The position numbers and the translations under genes were made by a program. A stretch of 64,000 bases of DNA from Negaprion brevirostris (taxonomy: Eukaryota): NCBI GenBank assembly GCA_030324005.1, contig JARDVH010000106.1, forward strand, positions 59,270,763 through 59,334,762, read 5' to 3'. This document shows positions 3,518-64,000 of the stretch, in pieces. The stretch's first letter is position 1. Every line of letters begins with the position of its first letter. A model generated the notes under the pieces. It had not been told where the DNA came from. It saw only the letters and a program-made list of their open reading frames with translations, and did no database searches.

Positions 3518-3753
3518 TAAAAGCAAAATACTGCAGATGCTGGAATCTGAAACAAAAACAGAAATTGCTGTAAAATCTCAGCAAGTTTGGCAGCATCCGC
3601 GGAGAGAAAATAAAACCAATGTTTCGAGTCTGGATGACCTATCTGGATGAGTCGCTCCTCAAAGGGTCATCCAGACTTGAAATGTTGGCTCTATTTCCTC
3701 TCCACAGATGCTGTCAGACTTGCTGAGATTTTCAAGCATTTATCTGTTTTTGT
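3518..3753. mobile_element. Short palindromic Penelope-like terminal element (family B) inserted into a CR1 3' tail
   Basis: Inverted arms. 14-bp flanking duplication ACCTATTCCTGTTA (3504-3517) / ACTTATTCCTGTTA (3754-3767). Confidence 0.75.
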
Positions 3754-7432: not shown

Positions 7433-8375
7433 AATCATCATTTGAAGCTTCTTTACTCTTATTAAAGACTGCAAAGATATAGCAGCAAATATTATTTCAT
7501 CAGGGCATGACACGGATAATTTATCAATATGTATTCATGCATATAAGAACATAAGAACATATGAAGCAGTACTTTGGTATATTCTAATAGGATGAATGGA
7601 ATGCCTGAAGTGCTAAGTTTCCACTTTCACGTTGGTTCCCTGCCCATTGCCAAGTGGGGTCTCAAAGCTTAAGGAGCAATCAGTGCTCTTTCTAGCTTCA
7701 GGGGACCACTCAGTTGCAATAGATGGCAAGTAGCAAGAGCATAATTGAACAAAAACATGGCCTCTTAAATCCTTTTTAAAAACTTTAATTAGAAGGTAGA
7801 GAAGGAAACCAGGCCACCACAGTGGAGTGGGGACAAACATAAATCTAGTTGGCTCAGGGAACCAGCATCATAGCAGGTTGCAATATTTTTGGACTCTATC
7901 TGCCTTTGTTCTCAGCCGGGCCTGAATATCTCACCTGATGAGTGCAACTTCAGCCTGTTAAAGAACATTTTTAAAGAACAACCTACATAATGGCAAATAC
8001 AGACAATATTACTTTATTTTGTGCTTACAATGGCCATTGGGAGTAATCAGAAGAATCTGCTCAAAGTTGTTCTGTTACAGCTGTCCTTTATACAAATCAT
8101 ACAAGTATATTCAAGTCTGTACAGAGCTAATCACATTCCTCAATACAATGGATTTCCTACCTGATTCACCCGATAGATCTTCATGAGAATACAATCAGGC
8201 CCATAACTAAATTACTTATGTGGTTGTAGCTTTTTTCCCTAGAGCATTCCATTCTTTGTATGCTTTCATTTTATTCAAATCATGCTATCCTCTGTATCCG
8301 GTCAAGCCATGCTAACCCATATTTTTTGAATTAGCCTTTTATTTTTATTCGACTTTCTCAAGTCTTAACAGGTAT

Positions 8376-8589
8376 TCATGATGTGGAGGTGCCGTTGTTG
8401 GTCTGGGGTGGGCACAGTAAGAAGTCTCACAATAGCAGGTTAAGGTCCAACAGGGTTATTTGGAATCACAAGCTTTCGGAGTGTTGCTCTTCATCAGGTC
8501 ACTCACTTGATGAAAAAGCAGTGCTCCAAAAGCTCATGATTCCAAATAAACCTGTTGGATTTTAACCTGCTGTTGTGAGTCTTCTTACT
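8376..8589. mobile_element. Short palindromic Penelope-like terminal element (family A) with two decayed minimal hammerhead motifs
   Basis: Inverted arms span 8416-8589. The minus arm reads CTGATGA-A-GAGCAACACTCC-GAAAGCTTGTGA. Flanked by CTTAACAGG(G)TAT on both sides. Confidence 0.7.
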
Positions 8590-8769
8590 TAACAGGGTAT
8601 GGTGGGGGATTCAGCTATGCAACACTGATGTCTCCTCAGTTCCAGCCTCTCTCTGATTCCCACTCTTTCCTTTCTATCTCAGCCTAGGAAGAAAGGGATG
8701 TAAAGAAACTAACTCACTTAAACATAGAAACCATGCCATCACCTGGTTAAACAATCCCCACATAATTGA

Positions 8770-9610
8770 TTTCATTGATTTATTTATCATTGTCACATGT
8801 ATTGGGACGCAATGAAAAGTATTGTTTCTTGTGCATTATAAAGACAAAACATCCTTTTGATAGAGTACATTGGAGAGAAGAAAAGGATAGGGTGCAGAAT
8901 ATAGTGTTGCAGTTACAAATAAAATGAGGAGAAAGATCAGCTTAATATGTGATAGGGGCATTCAAAAGTCTGATGGCAGCAGGGAAGAAGCTGTTCTTGA
9001 GTCGGTTGGTACATGATTTCAGGCTTTTGTATCTTTTTTCTGACAAAAGAAGATGGAAGAGAGTGTGTCTGGGGTGCGTGATGTCCTTGATTATGCTGGT
9101 TGCTTTCCAAGGTATCAAGAATTGTAGACAGAATCAATGGATGGGAGTTTGGTTTGTGTGATGGACTGAGTTGCGTTCACAACTGTTTGTAGTTTCTTGT
9201 GGCCTTGGTCAGAGCAGGAGCCATACCGAGCTGTGATACATCTGGACAGCATTCTTTCTATGGTTCATCTGTAAAAATAGGTCAGAGACCTAGTGAACAT
9301 GCTGAATTTTCTTCGCCTCCTGAGAAAGTGGAGGCATTGGTGGATTTTCTTAACAATAGCATCAGTGTGGAGGGGCCAGAACAGGTTGTTGATGATCTAG
9401 ACACCTACAAACTTGAAGCTCTTGACCATTTCCACTTCATCCCTTTTGATGTAGACAAATGCACGTCCTCCACTACATTTCCTGAAGTTAATGACTATCT
9501 CCTGCATTTTACTGACGTTGCGGGAGAGATTATGATCATTGCACCATTTCTCCAGATTCTTTATCTCCTTCGTGGACTCCATCTCATCATTGTCATCGTC
9601 ATTTCAGATG
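8770..9610 (-). mobile_element. Rex1/Babar-type LINE 3' fragment
   Basis: Minus-strand remnants NLEKWCNDHNLSRNVSKMQEIVINFRK and EMVKSFKFVGV. The 3'UTR is shared with copies at 23.6, 30.1 and 48.3 kb. Confidence 0.8.
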
Positions 9611-14120: not shown

Positions 14121-14255
14121 GAAGGCAAAATACTGTGGATGCTGGAAACTAAAACAAAAACAGAAAATGCTGGAAAATCTCAGCAGATCTGACAGCAGCT
14201 GTGGAGAGAATAGAGCCAACGTTTTGAGTCTGGATGACTCTTTGTCAGAGCTGGA
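14121..14255 (-). mobile_element. Single-arm family B element with a decayed hammerhead motif
   Basis: Very similar to the left arm of 3518-3753. Minus strand reads AGCT-CTGACAA-A-GAGTC-ATCCA-GACTC-AAA-ACGT-T-GGCT. Confidence 0.7.
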
Positions 14256-14845
14256 ATATTTATTTACATTACCAAAATCTCTTCTGATAAAATTCAGGCA
14301 AAGATTGTTTGAATATTCTTTTCTAAGTTACTGCAACATTATTGTGTAAACAGTCCCAAATTAATTCAAAATTGCTTCATTCAAGCTATTGAAAATACAA
14401 ATGTTTGAAGCACAAAAAAATCATTTTGATATTTGCATTAATTCTGAAAATTGTAAATGCAAAAATAATGTGAATTATCAGTGGGATATAATCTGAATGC
14501 TGCAATATCTGACTAATAACATCAGCTTTCAAACAGTAGAATTTGTAGGAGGCAAATGGCACTTTGTGATGGCAATAACAACTGCACTTTTAAATCTAAA
14601 TAATATTTCCTTTTGGAAAAATGATTATTTAAATACATTCCATTCTATAAACTGTGGAATTCAAGAGGACCCTTAGAGGGCTGCTAGACCATTGCTGGAA
14701 TTTTACTACCTTGCCCTCCCTGGAATCGGGGCAGGTGAGGCTCTGTTGGCCTCAGGCAGGATTTTTCAAGCTTCACACGAGCGAGGTCTAAAATCCTGTC
14801 CCCTGTATTAGAGACCGAAAAGAAACATGGTTGCTGTATTTGTAC

Positions 14846-15781
14846 CTGCCAACTTTCCTTTGAGACAGCACAAACATGTCCATCCTTAGAAGACACAAGG
14901 AAGAGGCAATTCTCTCTGTCAGTTGTAACCATTTTTATATCAGAGGTCTCTTCAAAAGGAAGCTGGCAGACATTCTTGGGGACACAGTTTTCGAACAAAA
15001 CCAGCTGCTTCTTACAAGTGCTTGCTACAACTGTGGTCTTTGGTTGATGATTGAGGTCTTCAATGGGGCAAATAAATACATTTGTAACTACAGAGCTGTA
15101 AGCATGTGGGATGAAATGATGGCTACACAAGTTTTCCTTTTGTAAGGAATAAGTGATAAATTCACTACCCCAGATCAGTTTATCAGCTTGCCAAACAGAG
15201 GTTTCGTCATGTTTTACAAGTCCAACAGTTTTTCTTACACCCAGTATAATGATGTCCTCATAAGAAATCTCTCCAATCCATTTAATTGCAGTAAATGAAG
15301 TGGGAATGTTCAAAATTCCATGAGTTTCAAAAGATACATAATACACTTGGTCACCATAACTCCAGAAAACACAGGGCCCAGGCAACAGGGTCACATTATC
15401 TTTTATTTCATATTCCAGTTCAAAGTCCAAACAGTGCTCAATTTCATTTGAGCTATGCAGCATAAGTAAATTATATCCAAATTTAGAATGAGCCTTTTTA
15501 TGTTTCTTAAGTAAGATACAAGGGGAATTTTGCCCTGTTCTTGAATCAATTGTACAACAACAGGCAATGATTTGCAAGAAGGAACTTTTTTGTTTCAGGT
15601 TGAATCTTCCTGAAAATGTTTGAATGAATTTCCCAGTCTCTGAATCAAATGTCATCCTTTTGAACTGCAGTACTGCATCATTTTTCCCACCAGGGTATTT
15701 TTCCTTGGATACAATAAAAGCAATCACCTCTCCTTTCAAAGTTGTGACATTCACAATCTTTTTAATGGATTCCAGCTCCAT
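14846..15781 (-). CDS. FANCB: FANCB (Fanconi anemia group B) first coding exon, 936 bp / 312 codons
   Basis: The long ORF MELESIKKIV...HFIPHAYSSVVTNV...ASTCKKQLVLFENCVPKNVCQLPFEE...AVSKESWQ resembles the large N-terminal FANCB exon. It ends at the donor CAG|GTACA (14846/14845), phase 0. An upstream acceptor ctccatttcAG (15861/15860) would add ~78 nt of 5'UTR. Confidence 0.93.
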
Positions 15782-15964
15782 TACAAACAGATGACTGCTT
15801 AAACCAGACCTGATTGTTATTCAGAGAATTGTTTCAAATTAAGTGATCCAAACAACACACTGAAATGGAGATTATGCAGAATAAATTAATTGTGAATATT
15901 TTTTCCAAGTTGTTGATGTATATTTCTATGTATTAAGGTCTCACATGACCAAATCATTTCCAAA

Positions 15965-18160: not shown

Positions 18161-18712
18161 CACAGATCAGAATGACAGAGAAGGGAAGTGAAGAAGTGGA
18201 ACCTGGAAGTGTGGATGAAGCCTTCAGCAGCAAGCAAGGGAAGCAGATAAAGATTGAAGGTGAAGTAGGTGTTCTTGATAACCTTCATCTGAGGTTGAAA
18301 CAGGACAAATATCACTCACTGCCACATTGAGCAAGAGAAAGCAGGTGGGGAGCTGGAAAGAAAAGCAGGCTCAGAATGAAACATCAGTTGACATTGAGCC
18401 AGGGATCTGCCTTGTGGTTATCCCAAACTGGGTATATATAATGGCTTCTACCATTATTTGTTTATGGACTTGTATGATACATAGACTTGTTACATATTCC
18501 ACATCCTAACTCTACATTCCATCCAGCTCCTAGCTGCTTGCTGTTGCACAATGTGGCAGTGAATGATCTCTGTCCTGTTTCAACCTCAGGTGAAGTTTCA
18601 AATTTCATATCCATTATGTCAAGAGCACGTGCTTCCCTTGCCTGCTGCTGAAGGCTTCATCCACACTTCCAGGTTCCACTTCTTCACTTTCCTTCTGTCA
18701 TTCTGACCTGTG
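18161..18712. repeat. Long inverted repeat (fold-back / MITE-like): ~195 bp arms, ~165 bp spacer
   Basis: 18161-18357 is the reverse complement of 18522-18712, e.g. aagtgaagaagtggaacctggaagtgtggatgaagccttcagcagca versus tgctgctgaaggcttcatccacacttccaggttccacttcttcactt. Confidence 0.9.
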
Positions 18713-22914: not shown

Positions 22915-24953
22915 GCAATGCAGTTTAATGTGGATAATTTGAGTTTATCCGCTTTCGTAGCTAAAAGGTGAAGGCAGATTATTTTCTGAGTGGATATAAA
23001 TTGAAAGAGGGGAATATGCAACAAAACCTGGGTTTCCTGTTACACCAGTCACTGAAGGTAAGCATGCAGGCACAGTAGGGGGTAAAGAAGGCCTTCATTG
23101 TGAGAGGGTTTGAGTACTGGAGCGCGGATGCCTTGATGCAATTATATAGGGCCTTGATGAGGCCACACCTGAAATATTGTGTGCAGTTTTGGTCTCCTTT
23201 TCTGTGGAAAGATGCTTTCGCTCTAGAGGGAATGCAGAGAAGGTTTAGCGGACTGATTCCTAGGGTGACAGGACTGATAGATGAGGAGATTGAGTCAATT
23301 AGGATTGTATTCATTGCAGTTGAGAAAAATGAGGAGGGATCTCCTTGAAATCTATAAAGTTCCAATAGGACTAGACAAGGTAGATGCTGGAAGGATGTCT
23401 CCAGAACCAGAGATCACAAGCTGAGGGTACAGGGGAGATGATTTAGGACAGAGATGAGAAATTTCTTCATGCAGAGTGTGAAATTTGCTACCACAGGAAG
23501 TGGTTGAGGACAAAACATTGAATGTTTTCAATAGGCAGCTAGATATAGCACTTGAGGCAAAGGGGATCAAAGGATATGGGGACCGGGGGAGGTGGGATCA
23601 GGCTATTGAGTTGGATGATCAGCCATGATCAAAATTTGATTTATTATTGTCATATATTAGTACACAGTGAAAAGTACTGTTTCTTGCGTGCTATACAGAC
23701 AAAGCATACCGTATATAGGGAAGGAAAGGCAAGAGTGCAGAATGAAGTGCTACAGTCATAGCNNNNNNNNNNNNNNNNNNNNNNNNNNNNNNNNNNNNNN
23801 NNNNNNNNNNNNNNNNNNNNNNGGTTGGTACGTGTACTCACGTATCACGTATTTTTGTGTCCTTCTCCTGAAGGAAGAAAGTGGAAGAGAGTATGTCCGG
23901 GGCGTGTGGGGCCCTTAATTATTCCGGCCGCTTTTGAGGTAGCGGGAAGTGTAGACAGTGTCAGCGGATGAGACATTGGTTTGAATGATGGACTGGACTT
24001 TGTTCACGACCCTTTGTAGCTCATTGAAGTCTTGGACAGAGCAGGAGCCGTACTAACCTGTGCTAGAACCAGAAAGAATGCTTTCTATGGTGCATTGGTA
24101 AAAGTTGCTAAGGACATGCCAAATTTCCTTAGTCTCCTGAGAAAGTAGAGGCATTGGTGGGCTTTAACTATGGAACAGGTTGTTGGTGATCTGGACACCT
24201 AAAAACTTGAAGCCCTTGACCATTTCGACTTTGTCCCATTGATATAGATGGGCATGCTCTCCACTATGCTTCCTGAAGTAAATGTCAACAAAATGAAAGA
24301 GATAATCTCTCCCTTGATGACTATTGTCATTGCATAAGTTCACCAGATTTGCTATCTCTTTCCTGTACTGTCTCTCAGCATTGTTTGAAATCCAACCCAC
24401 TGCGGTGATGTCATCAGTAAAAAAAATCGAGTCAGAGGGTAATTTGGCCACAGTCATAGGTATATAAGGAGTATGGTAAAGGGCTGAGGATACAGCCTTG
24501 CGGACCACCTGTATTGATTGCGGCGGAGGTGTTGCTGCCTATCCTTACTGTGGTCTATAGGTTAGGAAGTCTAGGATCTAGTTGCAGAGGAAGGGGCTGA
24601 GCCCCAGGCCACAAAGTTTGGAGATGTCTCGTAGGAATAATAGTGTTGAAGGCTGAGCTGTAGTCTGTGAATAGGAGCCTGACATAGGTGTGTTTGTTAC
24701 CTAGGTGTTCCAGCATTGAGTATAGGACCAGGGAGATGGCATCTGCTGTGGACCTATTGCAGCGATAGGTGAACTGTAGTGGTTCCGGGCAGTCTGGGAG
24801 ACAGGAATTGATTTGTTCCATGACTAACCTTTTCGAAGCATTTCATAATGATAGATGTCAGTCAGAGCCACCAGATAGTAATTAAGGCAGAATGAATGGT
24901 AGAGCAGACTCAGGCTGAATGGTCTTCTCCTGCTCCTATTTTCTATGTTTCTT
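22915..24953 (+). mobile_element. CR1-type LINE 3' part; pieces at 22915-23630 and ~24890-24953
   Basis: [22 protein letters not shown]. The 3'UTR is split at agccatgatc | aatgaatggtagagcag. Confidence 0.85.
23631..24885 (-). mobile_element. Rex1/Babar-type LINE RT and 3'UTR
   Basis: PLQFTYRCNRSTADAISL and TYVRLLFTDYSSAFNTIIP motifs. Confidence 0.85.
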
Positions 24954-30049: not shown

Positions 30050-30768
30050 TGAAAGGGAAGCATTGTCATCGACTTTAGGAAGCATAAAGGAGAACATGTT
30101 CCTGTCTACTTCAATGGGGACGAAGAGAGAGAGTTGAGAGCTTCATGTTTTTAGATGTCCAGATCACCAACAACCTGTCCTGGTCCCTCAAATGCTGACA
30201 CTGTGGTTAAGAAAGCTGACCAACACTGCTATTTTCTCAGAAGACCAAGGAAATTTGGCATGTCAGCTACGATTCTCTCCAACTTTTACAGATGCACCAT
30301 AGAAAGCATGCTTTCTGGTTATTTCACAGCTTGGTATGGCTCCTGCTCTGCCAAAGAGTGCAAGCATTTTCAGAAGGTTATGAATGTCGCCCAATCCACC
30401 ATGCAAACCAGCCTCCCATCCATTGACTCTGCCTACACTTCCAGCTGCCTCGGCAAAGCAGCCAGCATAATTAAGGACCCCACACACCCTGGACTTTCTC
30501 TCTTCCACCTTCTCCCTTTGGGAAAAAGATAAAAGTCAGAGGTCACGTACCAACTGACCCAAGAACAGCTTCTTCCCTGCTGCTGTCAGACTTTTGAATG
30601 GACTCACCTTGCATTAAGTTAACCTTTCTCTACACCCTAGCTATGACTGCAACACAACATTCTGCATTCTCTTGTTTCCTTCTCTATGAATGGTATGTTT
30701 TGTCTGTATAGTGTGTAAGAACAATACTTTTCACGATGATAATACATGTGAAAATAATAAATCAAATC
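30050..30768 (+). mobile_element. Rex1/Babar-type LINE 3' fragment
   Basis: VKKA.Q.CYFLRR.RKFGMS.TILSNFYRCTIESML motif, with an (AAATC)n tail. Confidence 0.85.
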
Positions 30769-31639
30769 AAAGAATGTCAGACTGATTGTATCCATAAGCC
30801 AAAACAAGTGAGATTTATAGCACTGAATGCACTCTGTCTTTGCCCGAACTCTGATGTAGCAATATGCCATTAAACCCCACTACCCTGAATCTTTTAAATT
30901 GAAATGGCTCTAACTTCTGAACTACAAATTGTATGTGTAGTGCTGTGTGCTATTGATAGTTTCCTTTCAGCTTAAGGAATAAGTACAACTGTTCTAAAGC
31001 TGTTCCTCACGTACGCACCACTTTGTAAAGTCTAACGTATGCAACCCTTTGAGATGAATTTATTTCCAAGTGTACATTGAAAACAGATGTTAATATAACA
31101 TGGCATTTGACCTTCAGTGCTCTGAGGATGTGTGACCATTCAGGGGGAGAATATTCTTCTGAATTATTCCTTAGTTCCTCTTCTGTGACACTGTGACATT
31201 GATTGTCACCTATTGTCAGAGATTTTGCATAAAATATCTGCTGACAGTTTCATAATTCTAGCAATGGACTTGAAAGATGTAATGAAACATTAATGTAGTT
31301 GAAATTTCATTGGGCTTTTTATACACCAAGTGAGCGTGAAAATTGCCAGTTCCAAATAAACCTTGAAGAGATGGTAGGACCAACATATAAAGTAAATCTG
31401 TTAGGGTTTATATTATCCCAGCATTTGCATTTAGCACATATAATACGTTGTTCTGACTGGAAAATGGTGTCCCAGACCAATTATGTTACTTTTGTGTCAG
31501 TGGTTTTCAGATGAAAGACATAAAGCCGATAACGTTATTGAATAGTTGCCACTTTGATTCTTGAGCTTACTGTACAGGAGATGTGAAGTGATCTCTTGTA
31601 GGTAGTCTCATCATCCTTGGGCATCCTTTAGGCTTGTGT

Positions 31640-42192: not shown

Positions 42193-43874
42193 TACTTTTT
42201 GTCTGTCCATTGTTGGTTGGCACACTGGCTCCTGCCAGTGTTTCTAAATGTAAACACCTTGTACGTTCCCAATGAAATAATCTAGGCCCAGTTTATTCCT
42301 TAGCAATCTAACTATTTGCGCTCATTGTCAGGTGAGCTTCAGAAAAGGTCACATCACCCCTTACATTTTACCTTAAAATTAAAGGCATCGTCCAAACTCT
42401 TTGAAACCTCATAATTGTAACAGTTCACATTGTATATTTGTGAATATGATAGGTGTTATTTTGTGGATTGTTGTAGATGAGTGATATTTATTGGAAGTAC
42501 AGTCACGTCATTGTTGCCCACTTCCGCATTGTGAATATTAAGGAAGGTTAAATTTAAGATTTTCTTTGAAGTTGCTTTTGAGCCCTTTGCAATATAAATT
42601 TCATCATTTATCTGTATGAAGCTGTCAATGAAATCTTTTGAACCACAAATATGACTAAATGTGGTAGTAAAAAATGAGAAAGGGCCAAATGAGATTGCTA
42701 ATTTTAAAATATGATTCATCAAACATCAATTTGGCAGTTGCTATAGGTGTGATTTTCCTAGTTAGGAGATGATTCAAAATGCCATTTGATGGAAGCTTGC
42801 ATAGTAATTTTTTTTTTGCTTGCTGTCATGAACTAGACTCTACCCAGTAATCACATCCGGTTTTGCCTTTTATGTAGATGATTTCAAAGGATGAGCACCA
42901 GAGGGTATTTTTTTCCCTCAATTTTGTGGAGTTTATACTGCTGCTCACTAAGTTTTCTGTGTTGGCTGCCAGTTTTATTCTGTTTGTTCTTGGATGAAAG
43001 ATGCTCATGGATGTTGTGGGTTAACTTGCAATAACTTGATTCCACCTACTGTTTAGAGATTTTCCCAGTAGCATCTATTTGCCATAATCCAATTGTACTC
43101 TAGTTATAATAAGAATTCTACCTTGCATGCCCTGGTGTGACTCTTACTAAAGTCGGTAAAGTTCTACTTTATTGTTTTTGATATGGAGACTTTGGATACG
43201 ATCATTCAAAATATCAGTAACCACTGCTGTTCTAGCTGTTAATTTAAATAGTTGCTGTTCTTAATTTATGATTAAAACATGGAACTTAGCACTAGAAGAA
43301 GCCATTGAGGAAAATAGCAAAAATATACTTAAAGGAAGCAAGTAAGTCGTACATGAGGGAGAAATGAACAGAAAGTTCTATTAATAGGGTTAGATAAAGA
43401 GGGGTGGAAGGAGGGTCATGGGGCACAAGCATGGTCTGAATGGACCAGTTTGATCAAATAGCCTTTTCTGAGCTGTAAGTTCAATGTAAAATGAGAGGAG
43501 TCCTAATTTATGCTGAAGATGTAGTTGTATAGGTCAGGTATCCTTCATCTGAAACTTTTGGGACCAGTTTGCATTTTGGCATTCAGATGTTTTCAGTTTT
43601 TGGGCCTAATTACATTACAATAGCCTAGGCTAGCTGTAGTTTACAAAGACTGGGTTGTTTCTCCTCTTATGCACCCTATTTCTCACCTGTCAACAAAACG
43701 GATTGTGTTTTTTTGGACTAAGTCACAGTCCGTTCTAAAAGTATGAAGATGTTTAAGTGATATAAACTAGAGGTAGTATAATGAGCTGTTTTAGTGCAAA
43801 CTGAAGGAAGCTCATTTATTTCCATTGATGTATTTTTTCTTTAACAGCTTATTTTCACATAATTCACTTGCATA

Positions 43875-43955
43875 CAGACTTGAAATGAGAACTTTGTTCC
43901 TCTTTCCATAGGTGCTGTCAAATCTGCTGAGCTTTTCCAACATTCTGTTTTTCTC
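43875..43955 (+). mobile_element. Degenerate family B-related fragment
   Basis: cagacttgaaatg...gctgtcaaatctgctgagcttttccaacattctgttt. Confidence 0.55.
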
Positions 43956-48299: not shown

Positions 48300-49340
48300 T
48301 ATGATTTGATGTATTATCACATGCATTGAAAAGATTGTTCCTTGCGCGCTATACAGACAAAGCGTACTGTACATGGAGAAGGAAGGAGAATGCAGAATGT
48401 AGTGTTACAATCATAGTTAGGGTGTAGAGAAAGATCAACTTAATGAGGTAGGTCCATTTAAAAGTCTGGCCATGGGGAAGAAGCTGTTTTTGAGTTGGTT
48501 GGTACGTGACCTCAGACTTTTATCTTTTTCCAAAAGGAAGAAGTTGGAAGAAAGTATGTTTAGAGTACATGGGGTTCTTGATTATGCTAGCTGCTTTTCC
48601 GAGACAGTGGGAAGTGTAGACCGGGAGGCTAGTTTGCGTGATGGACTGGGCTTCGTTCACAACCCTTTATAACTTGGACAGAGCAGGAGCCATTCCAAGC
48701 TGTGATACAACTAGAAAGGATGCTTTCTATTTTGCATCTGTAAAAGTTGGTGAGAGTTATAACAGACACGTCAAATTTCCTTAGTCTCCTGAGAAAACAG
48801 AGGCATTGGTGGGCTTTCTTAACTATAGCGTCAGTATGGAGGGACCAGGACAGTTGATGTGGATAGTATCACACACAAGCTCTCGACCATTTCTACTTCA
48901 TCCCATTGATGTAGACATGTCTTCTACTATGCTTCCCAAAACCAATGACCATCTCCTTCATTTTGTTGAATTGAGGGAGAGATTATTGATGTTGCACCAG
49001 TTCATCAGATTCTCTATCTTCCCTGTACTCCGTCTCGTTATTGCCCGAGACCAACCCAATACAGTGGTATCATCAGCAAATTTCAAAATCAAATTTGGCG
49101 GGGAATTTGACCCCACAGTCATAGGAGTATAAGGAGTATAGTAGGGGGCTGAGAGCAAGCCTTGTGGGGCACCGGTGTTGAGGAGGATCGTGGAGAAGGT
49201 GCTGTTGCCGATCCTTACCAATGTGGGTTAGGAAGTTCAGGATCTGGTCACAGAGGGAGGAGCTAAGCTCCAGTCCATGGAGTTTGGTTGGAATAATGGT
49301 ATTGAAGGCTGAACTGTGGTCAATAAATAGGAGTTTGAAC
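48300..49340 (-). mobile_element. Rex1/Babar-type LINE RT and 3'UTR
   Basis: LLFIDHSSAFNTIIP, LNTGAPQG and ILKFADDTTV motifs. Confidence 0.85.
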
Positions 49341-60989: not shown

Positions 60990-62085
60990 CCTAGTGATGT
61001 AATGGTAATGTTCCTGGACTAGTGATCCAGAATAATTCAGGATGCGGGTTTAAATTTCATTATGGCAATTGATGGAATTTAGGTTCAATTAATTACCAAG
61101 TCTGGAAGTAAAAGCTAGCCTCAATAATGATAGCTATGAAATTGTGAATTATCATACAAGTTCAACTAGATCACTATCTAATGCCTTTTAAATAAGGAAA
61201 CCTGCCATCCTTATCTGCTCGGGCCTACATGTGACTCCAGGCTCTCAGTAATGTAGCTAACTCTTAGCTGTCTTCTGAGATGACCTAGTGAACTACTCGA
61301 ATGTACCAAACCACTATAGAAATGTCAAAAAAAACCTACCTAGCATTGACATAGGCACTAGAAACGATACCATGCCCAGTCAACCCTGAAATGTCCTCTT
61401 TTTAATAGCTGGGAACTTTGGGAAAACTGGGAGATTTGTCCCACATACTAGTCTAGCAATACCCTGACAGAATCATACTCATCAAAGCATNNNNNNNNNN
61501 NNNNNNNNNNNNNNNNNNNNNNNNNNNNNNNNNNNNNNNNNNNNNNNNNNNNNNNNNNNNNNNNNNNNNNNNNNNNNNNNNNNNNNNNNNATCAAAGCAT
61601 ATCTTACAGACAATGTCCCAGACTCTCCATCACTGTTTCCTGCACATCTGTCCGACTGGCCTGACAAATCCACCAGAAGTGGCAGCAGTGACCCTAAGAA
61701 TGCTTAACATTGTCTCTGGCCCCTACAAAGCCTCATGCACCAGGTTAAACATGGGCAAAAATTGCCACCTACCATCCTCCTTCAGCTGATGAATCTATCC
61801 TCCTCTATCCTGGACACCAATTGGAAAAGGCACTAAATAGTAAGAATAAAGTTGGGTGGGAGGCTTCAATGCCCATCCCTTTAGAGTGACTCACTGGCAT
61901 TAGAACTGGCTGCTTGCCATGTCCTGAAGTATACATCTGTCAGAATGGCCTGTGGCAGGTAGTGAGAGAACCAGCATATTTCCCTTACCAATCTACCTGT
62001 CACAGATATATCTATCCATGATAGGAATGAGCACCACACAGTCCTTATTAAGGAAAAAGTCCTGTCTTGGATGCTGCCCGAGTGG
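60990..62085 (+). mobile_element. Decayed LINE-like element with a tRNA-like 5' head
   Basis: Head shared with 51965-52262, followed by endonuclease-like remnants. Confidence 0.5.
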
Positions 62086-64000
62086 CTGAACATTTACACA
62101 TTTCCTAGCTTTGTTTTCAGATTTCCAGCATCTGCAGTGTTTCTCTTGTTGTGTTCAGTTTGGTTACACGCCAGTCCACAAGCATAATATGTAAAAATAT
62201 AAAATTGCAGCCGAAGTTTCGGCCAGCTTGATTTTTTTTTTGAACGCCATCTGGTCTCGTAATTCTGCATCTTGAGCTCAGCCTTTTGTTTTAGAACTGT
62301 TTGCTTACCTGCTGTAATCGCGAACAGATTCTTATCCACCTATAGTGCACCAACATTGAGTTCAACTGTCATGAAAATTCAGCATGAGGGTTGACAATTT
62401 GCAAATATGGTCTATATTTTCATAAGTAGCTAGCTTACAAAGATTACTTGGAGGAAAGAACTAACATTATTGCCTCAAAGTGCCATGGACTTGGGGTCAA
62501 TTCCAGCCTTGGGTGACTGTGTGGACTTTACACACCCTCTCCGTGTCTGTCACCTCTGGATGTNNNNNNNNNNNNNNNNNNNNNNNNNNNNNNNNNNNNN
62601 NNNNNNNNNNNNNNNNNNNNNNNNNNNNNNNNNNNNNNNNNNNNNNNNNNNNNNNNNNNNNNNNNNNNNNNNNNNNNNNNNNNNNNNNNNNNNNNNNNNN
62701 NNNNNNNNNNNNNNNNNNNNNNNNNNNNNNNNNNNNNNNNNNNNNNNNNNNNNNNNNNNNNNNNNNNNNNNNNNNNNNNNNNNNNNNNNNNNNNNNNNNN
62801 NNNNNNNNNNNNNNNNNNNNNNNNNNNNNNNNNNNNNNNNNNNNNNNNNNNNNNNNNNNNNNNNNNNNNNNNNNNNNNNNNNNNNNNNNNNNNNNNNNNT
62901 TTTCCAAAGCTTGGCCACTTTATCACGTTTCCCTCGCATAAAATAACATGTGCTTTGATCCACTAATAGAAATACTGGTGCCTAACAGAATACCAATTAA
63001 CTGTTGATGAATTTAAGACTAGTCGTCTCACGCATCCACTTATCCATGCGGCAGGTTTCACAAATAACAAAGCTGGAAGTGTCTCATTTATCTGCAGTTT
63101 TTTGTAATATTTATTACTGTAACTCCATAGAGTACATAATAGAGTTCAAGAGCATAAGACAAAATGCATCATTTTAAAATTGACTTGTGCTTCTGTGTTT
63201 TTGGTGCATATTTATTTGCTAATATAATTTTTCTATATTAAGGATATACAGATAAGGTTTAAATGTGTTGGATTAATGTACTGTTTAAACCTTCAAAATT
63301 GATATCAGGATGAGATGATTTAGTACACTACACAAGCTTTTTTGTTAGAGATCATTTTGCTACTGTTGAATTTTGGATTATATAATCAAGAGCAAAACCC
63401 TTCCCTCCTATGCAATTGGAGACAATATTTTAATCTATGCATATGTTTTATTAGAGACCTGCATAGATGATTTGATGCACAGAGATGCTTTGTAATGAGC
63501 TTTCATTTTTCTCTAATGCTTGAACAGTGGAACTTCAATATTGGACTAATTACAAGCTGGAGCAATTTCCTTACATATTTAACTTGTAAGTTTTTGTGTA
63601 CTTAAATTCTCATTGATCACCTCAGATCATAACTGGCGAGGGGGTGGAGGAGGCTGGTGTGATTGCAAAGAGTAAACCCTCTTGAAACATTTTTATATCA
63701 ACATATTGGATCTTTTTTCTATATTGTTCATTGGATGTGGGTGTCACTCATAAGGCAAGTATTTATTGCCCATCACCTAATGTCGTGATTAACTCCCTTT
63801 TATGAACTGCTGCAATCCATTTAGTGCAGTGATGATGTGTGACTTGGTGGGTGACTTGATGTTGTTCACATGCATCTGCTGTCTTTGTCCATTTCAAGAT
63901 GGTACAAGTTGTGGGTTTGTAACAACCTGTGCAAAAAAGAATCTTAAGATTCTTTTGGATGTAACTATTCGTTTGTTCAATAGTCAATCTCATTTAATTA

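Follow-up and report, generated by a model that had tools for sequence, protein, structure and literature searches.

What kind of mobile DNA leaves a short palindrome with a hammerhead-like motif on each strand? The question is raised by an insert at 8377-8589 of the window, the whole 64,000-nt stretch of Negaprion brevirostris DNA analysed here. A sequence-only reading took it for a non-autonomous, ribozyme-delimited, retrozyme-like unit. The coordinates and letters given in that reading are correct on re-reading of the sequence, and its view that this copy has no coding capacity is borne out, as are the mobile origin, the target duplication and the existence of a parent with reverse transcriptase (RT) and GIY-YIG domains. 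The nature of the unit appears to be different. The insert consists of two short pLTR copies placed head to head. They were likely made during a single insertion, when reverse transcription started from each nicked strand and ran off an uncleaved, likely capped RNA, the two products then being joined. A ribozyme element that propagates itself is therefore an unlikely description.

The insert and its damaged hammerheads

The insert is a lopsided palindrome of 213 bases, ending at 8377 and 8589, whose left arm carries an extra 38-nt tail. Its arms (8416-8491 and 8514-8589) are 84% complementary, in agreement with the palindrome first described. Both strands of the unit fold into one long hairpin (z = -17.7 and -15.9; none of 200 shuffles is equally stable), and a transcript of the full palindrome is predicted to form a hairpin of -115 to -124 kcal/mol. 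The proposed target-site duplication is also present, with an exact 9-nt core, CTTAACAGG (8364-8372 and 8588-8596), followed by 3 more bases past a 1-nt indel. The first 2 nt of its right copy coincide with the last bases of the element itself. The duplication score of this copy is reached in 0.4% of controls. The features are as follows, S1 and S2 being the two sites at which the family's outer ends lie.

8364-8375, plus strand: left target-site duplication copy, with the exact 9-nt core
8377-8415, minus strand: 38-nt tail of a Penelope-like element (PLE), which stops at the ATG opening the ORF in longer copies (site S2; L033, L194; PMC8557442, PMC11167929)
8416-8465, minus strand: left arm, pLTR body from the ribozyme to site S1
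8466-8499, minus strand: left minimal hammerhead, likely inactive; the cut site would be 8470/8469
8498-8506, no strand: head-to-head junction of the arms, which varies among copies
8500-8539, plus strand: right minimal hammerhead, beginning at the 5'-end hot spot and predicted to be dead; the cut site would be 8535/8536
8540-8589, plus strand: right arm, pLTR body with its tailless end at site S1
8588-8600, plus strand: right target-site duplication copy, its first 2 nt common to the element end

Two minimal hammerhead motifs are indeed present, but neither arm of this copy is an intact ribozyme with complete core and helices. In the plus arm C3 has become U (8507) and G12 has become A (8528), while helix II is short of two pairs and helix I of one. 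The minus arm keeps its core boxes, has lost one helix II G and has a helix I reduced to 2 pairs plus a G.G mismatch. A strict hammerhead descriptor misses both arms, and an Rfam search of the stretch matched no family, hammerhead included, even at an E-value of 5. CpG decay after insertion strikes G12 and the cut site; among 30 copies, C/T and G/A splits occur at CpG sites in the manner already described from this copy.

The ancestral hammerhead deduced from the single insert coincides with the column majorities over these 30 copies. The majorities contain CUGANGA, GAAA, UH, helix II with G10.1-C11.1, helix I and a palindromic tetranucleotide, and the family ancestor shows every feature that PMC4209133 lists for minimal PLE hammerheads. 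The core boxes, an extra base before helix II, G10.1-C11.1, the palindromic AGCU and a short helix I are all common to the shark motif and to the metazoan PLE motifs of that paper, the available part of which does not name the shark family. A minimal type I hammerhead of Penelope-like origin is borne out. Among 100 arms drawn at random from 238, helix II cells are paired in 88.8% and helix I cells in 75.8%, figures to be read in the knowledge that many of the 238 arms were chosen by patterns containing the core. Double-sided changes occupy 18 helix II cells in the same 100 arms, and none of 500 shuffles yields as many. This compensatory change reflects a few subfamily events, G-C to A-U being found in 11 of the 238 arms. 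At loci chosen by a downstream motif, the core is kept in 16 of 51 ungapped motifs.

Each strand does carry a motif, as first read, but this is a by-product of inversion, in which each transcript comprises one ribozyme and its complement, and the two pair. The ribozymes are passengers: they lie centrally, their template is uncut, every transcript sets them against their own complementary sequence, and in this copy they have decayed. Hammerhead pairs on opposite strands are known from Schistosoma, and most motifs are ascribed to truncated PLEs (PMC4209133). Those pairs lie 100-700 bp apart, whereas the two motifs of the shark insert are less than 10 nt apart.

The window holds other repeats. 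At 3520-3753 lies a member of a second, unrelated head-to-head family, with a minimal hammerhead and an ACGU palindrome in each arm and a one-sided tail of about 32 nt. The family has 4,400 first-look candidates, and 20 copies have a variable centre and duplication-like flanks; these copies were picked by their likeness to 3520-3753, a choice that may bias the one-tail pattern. A guessed centre pattern for this family gave 0 matches. Single arms of it occur at 14122-14253 (ending a few bases before its ribozyme core), 43871-43952 and 62069-62142. A 518-bp element at 18179-18696, which may be MITE-like or an inverted insertion, has long inverted arms that are 97% and 86% complementary. A LINE-like repeat is present in four copies of 72-85% identity (8770-9570, 23630-24690, 30100-30770 and 48320-49340), and the longest open frame of the window has 378 codons (14684-15820, minus strand).

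The parent element

The arms both correspond to the pLTR, the 3' end, of a Penelope-like retrotransposon of Neptune/Nematis type that encodes RT and GIY-YIG domains. An element with these two domains and the same terminus, for which the sequence-only reading had proposed to look, exists in the genome. Copies that extend upstream pass through the 3' UTR into the GIY-YIG domain, and in 25 of 30 loci found by that domain the arm lies about 200 bases downstream of it on the same strand. On the downstream side, where copies stand in partial tandem, the tail abuts the ATG with which the ORF begins (arm and tail, then ATG, in L033, L194, L204 and L177). The vertebrate distribution of the two clades would favour Neptune over Nematis as the parent.

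An open stretch of 300 residues (P0001) contains a CX4CxxC linker (CHSNLCKTC) and two cysteines between IVY and YIG. A CX2-5CxxC linker before the endonuclease is a feature of Neptune and Nematis, which CHSNLCKTC matches, and the IVY-YIG cysteine pair is likewise given for both clades (PMC8557442). The RT motifs DKG, DVxALY, GTAMG and YMDD/YIDD are found in related loci, all decayed copies. Shark homologues show 70-77% identity, with RVT_1 in 3 of 7 hits (1,080 candidates). The RT-bearing locus L184 has no arm within the stretch inspected, and the link between arm and RT goes via the common GIY-YIG region. None of the copies inspected has an intact full-length ORF. Pfam gave no match for three open stretches and none for an RT piece, the one match obtained being a sub-threshold GIY-YIG (E 0.012); a PDB sequence search gave no match. 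A piece of the endonuclease region, at 60-82% identity, also occurs within the shark proteins P0003, P0006 and P0008 (NOXP20-like, septin 5a and PPP1R12A-like isoforms), where its presence may reflect exonisation or an annotation error.

The family combines the hallmarks of EN+ PLEs: RT with a C-terminal, two-cysteine GIY-YIG domain (in decayed copies), a pLTR with a minimal hammerhead in partial tandems before the ORF, a 38-nt tail at one end, a neighbouring inverted truncated copy and a short target duplication. Published EN+ insertion units (PMC3846280, PMC8557442) similarly have an inverted 5'-truncated copy beside the pLTR, a TATA and Inr-like motif in the pLTR (a pair described in rotifer pLTRs; PMC3846280), a tail of 30-40 bp at one end and a target duplication of 8-10 bp. 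The shark insert is unlike them in consisting of only two pLTR stubs, without an ORF. The palindromic architecture is already in print (PMC3846280, PMC8557442, PMC4209133), and the shark family is probably already catalogued in Repbase or Dfam. Our literature search found no paper on shark PLE palindromes.

The family is abundant. An arm-derived 28-mer occurs, without mismatch, 17,030 times in the 2.69-Gb genome (control, 0), and an exact match to a like stretch is found in 18% of 118 sampled arms, which together put the total, roughly, at the order of 100,000 arms. A first-look search for the insert gave 6,418 candidates, 40 of which were scored. The copies are old, at about 6.5% from the majority, and their arms range from about 40 to more than 600 nt.

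Ends and junctions across the family

Two sets of loci define what follows. The first holds 59 loci, the leading ones of 528 strand matches, whose two cores are separated by no more than 14 extra bases. The second holds 89 loci on one contig, the first ones matching a downstream 28-mer, with one locus common to the first set. In the second set an inverted partner is present in 43 loci and absent from 46; same-strand neighbours, found in 4 of the 89, represent partial tandems or independent insertions. Arms that stand alone and long arms, with ends identical to those of the inverted pairs, are as common as such pairs. It is this, together with junctions that differ between copies (see below), that speaks against the idea of a unit moving as such.

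The outer ends fall at two sites, S1 and S2, located 83 and about 121 bases from the first C of the core (59 loci). The 38-nt gap between them is the PLE tail. Inverted pairs nearly always combine the two sites: 35 of 38 classified loci are mixed, against 19 expected (p 3e-8; the other 21 of the 59 are unclassified owing to N or short arms), as are 30 of 36 classified pairs of the second set (p 3.5e-5). The single arms of the second set divide into 22 S1 and 21 S2. Target duplications are frequent, a score of at least 7 being attained in 19 of 35 sister loci versus 1.3% of 1,190 mismatched flank pairs. A duplication is likewise present in 15 of the 28 best BLAST copies versus 1.5% of controls. 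Of the single arms with a hot-spot end, however, only 2 of 8 have one (4 more were dropped for N). At S1 the duplication starts on the last 2 bases of the element in 11 of 24 loci scoring at least 6 (right flanks of L091-L149), as it does in this copy; short primer-template pairing at that site is thus likely. Among the matches listed from four contig sets, in which many contigs of the repeat family occur, there was no empty-site joint, and a search of sequencing runs for the stretch listed no match recorded as RNA.

The inner, 5' ends may tell where the copied RNA began. Among 114 arm ends lying between -60 and +60, 26 fall at -6 to -3 (p 6e-15), a hot spot that also terminates single arms; 5' ends are also scattered over -30 to +45. 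The local aligner runs past true 5' ends by a few bases. A peak at the ribozyme cut site (28 to 33) was sought among the same 114 mapped ends and is absent, with 1 end there, or some 3 by eye if the numbering is adjusted for short-linker copies. In this copy, too, the cut sites (8469/8470 and 8535/8536) lie away from the ends of the insert at 8377 and 8589. The term ribozyme-delimited cannot therefore be kept.

The hot spot has the position of a probable transcription start. Of 42 run-through copies, 24 have a TATA-like box whose first base lies 31-32 bases ahead of the A at -5 (the box lies elsewhere in 8 and is absent from 10), and we infer that the A at 8501 is the first base of the RNA. 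Arms ending here often have an extra G. Genome matches with G at -6 number 293, and those with A or T at -6 number 356. The base at -7 is A or G in 82 of the first 100 G matches and in 18 and 16 of the first 100 A/T matches, which scales to about 240 : 64 : 57 for G : A : T at -6 with A or G at -7 (hand counts of the first 100; the window is 38% GC). When 30 extra-G loci were inspected by eye, some 6-7 of 26 G could derive from the partner arm, and 4 of the 30 resembled mutated run-through copies. At the main site, the first departing base is G in 11 of 17 junction cases without a partner-arm explanation; over three positions the G excess of the junction set is modest (22 of 44, p 0.016).

A templated origin of the extra G was rejected, the base preceding the A at -5 being C in 23 of 24 run-through copies. 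A splice-junction origin was rejected as well: the run-through copies have no AG before the hot spot, and the bases before the G have no exon sequence in common. An untemplated G at the 5' junctions of full-length L1 and SVA insertions has been ascribed to the cap (PMC3287187), and the single extra G seen here is like it. RT may, however, add C at any template end, capped or not. In contrast to L1 and SVA, run-off here yields a product of just 90-125 nt, since reverse transcription starts inside the RNA. Such a short product resembles retroviral strong-stop DNA.

The junctions between arms are diverse, with 49 types in 59 loci. The commonest, found in 9 of the 59, is 9 bases long; with the tail set to the left its centre is G in 8 cases, C in 6 and T in 3. 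This recurrent junction thus occurs in both polarities, which is not expected from one master copy. Among 30 pairs there are 18 whose tailless arm extends beyond the tailed one by at least 5 nt in the 5' direction, so that neither arm contains the other; in 10 it is the tailed arm that reaches further. An unexplained G precedes both arms in 3 of the 59 junctions. Of 112 pairs, 49 can be classified, and in 48 of these the two arms are of the same subfamily (shuffle mean 22); 23 substitutions are common to both arms versus 8.6. Subfamily agreement and common substitutions are explained by fold-back copying or by gene conversion at a later time just as well as by twin priming.

Origin of the inverted pair

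The reading that we favour can be set out as a sequence of steps, the evidence for which comes wholly from old genomic copies. RNA polymerase II would start 31-32 nt behind the TATA-like box, at the first base of the helix I strand of the ribozyme. S1 and S2 would mark the two places inside the RNA at which RT begins, the enzyme acting as a dimer by which both strands are cut and extended, as suggested by the anole enzyme. Both nicked target strands would prime reverse transcription on pLTR RNA, one from each start site. Synthesis of both cDNAs would proceed to the cap and run off there, in the manner of L1 and SVA insertions, on a template that the ribozyme had not cut. The cap-templated C would make the cDNA ends anneal: two run-off cDNAs ending GAGTC would pair at 4 of 5 bases to give the commonest 9-nt junction, with G or C central, and the remaining junction types would be end-joining with loss or filler. 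The damaged ribozymes of the present copy would then lie buried in the hairpin.

The model leans on the Poseidon element of Anolis carolinensis, PAc, whose predicted dimeric enzyme cuts and extends both strands, has two RT start sites flanking the tail and uses uncleaved RNA as its main substrate (PMC11167929). The same start sites, two-strand extension and uncleaved template are proposed for the shark family. The two elements differ in that Poseidon is another clade and the PAc ORF starts inside the ribozyme, while the shark ORF starts at the tail end. The available part of the PAc study does not treat capped RNA or head-to-head products ('cap' has 0 hits). Twin priming gives no reason why one protein of the pair should choose S1 and the other S2.

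In published EN+ units, the inversion has been read as antisense self-priming or endonuclease resolution (PMC3846280, PMC8557442). Applied to the shark family, one cDNA would fold back or self-prime on an antisense template, and staggered cutting by the endonuclease, at two sites, would resolve the hairpin so that the tail stays on one side only; the product would still be that of a PLE and not a retrozyme. This course of events accounts jointly for the S1+S2 rule, the subfamily agreement (48/49) and the common substitutions, and has precedent in the interpretation of palindromes at inverted junctions as self-priming (PMC3846280) and in the attribution of the tail to endonuclease resolution (PMC8557442). 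We nevertheless consider it rather unlikely. The 1-nt centre of the commonest junction is too tight for a hairpin loop, the G before both arms in 3 of 59 junctions is left unaccounted for, and the 18 of 30 pairs with the longer tailless arm would need later trimming. Furthermore, the extra G behind a TATA box suggests a sense, capped template, and the anole enzyme initiates at both sites and extends both strands (PMC11167929). The family evidence thus speaks for reverse transcription from a sense template, capped and uncleaved, rather than for antisense self-priming.

Twin priming could also be kept with another meaning for the 5' hot spot, namely a stall of RT once it has passed the ribozyme helices, or a splice junction like that of Drosophila Penelope. 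The spread of 5' ends over -30 to +45 would suit either version, and in D. virilis the 5' end of helix I is where the intron has its 3' boundary (PMC4209133). We regard this as improbable: a stall would be expected on the 3' side of a helix, the splice version lacks both the AG and a common exon sequence, and the TATA spacing is canonical.

Least probable, and largely refuted for the family, is the original proposal of a non-autonomous palindromic master, ribozyme-delimited and processed, that is transcribed and retrotransposed whole; high copy number, one recurrent junction class (9/59), fixed ends with frequent duplications, and helix II compensatory change between subfamilies (18 cells, 0/500 shuffles, few independent events) speak for it, against 49 junction types in 59 loci with the recurrent one in both polarities, 46 of 89 loci without an inverted partner, arms of about 40 to more than 600 nt, ends that do not coincide with the cut sites, a full transcript that collapses into a hairpin of -115 to -124 kcal/mol, and the head-to-tail arrays of true retrozymes (PMC7229834). 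Non-LTR retrozymes (PMC7229834; bioRxiv 10.64898/2026.07.22.740005) do resemble the insert in having a type I hammerhead, in being non-coding and in their relation to PLEs. They form head-to-tail arrays that are ribozyme-processed to circular RNA, whereas the shark insert is a single inverted pair with ends off the cut site. As head-to-tail tandem monomers and ends set by ribozyme cleavage are both missing (the 3' ends are at S1/S2), the label retrozyme-like has to be dropped.

The literature searched, with repeat databases and supplements outside its scope, yielded no report of a cap-like G in PLE insertions, of a start site at helix I or of junction pairing. The available parts of PMC3846280 and PMC8557442 report no cap-like G, 5'-end hot spot or one-tail count. 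The insert itself is ordinary, decayed repeat debris. In sharks, such palindromes risk being misannotated as MITEs, retrozymes or microRNA-like hairpins. The family bears on how the inverted ends and one-sided tail of PLEs arise, and on whether the hammerhead cuts before reverse transcription. A broader proposal is that the inverted structure typical of Penelope insertions is twin target priming on a capped pLTR RNA that begins with a hammerhead, by a protein pair in which each partner starts at one of two fixed sites and each cDNA ends at the cap, with the cap-templated C giving the homology for joining; we hold the chances of its being right or wrong to be evenly balanced. If it is true, the approximately 100,000 stubs in this genome would be strong-stop-like products that record the start site of the RNA, with its ribozyme uncut.
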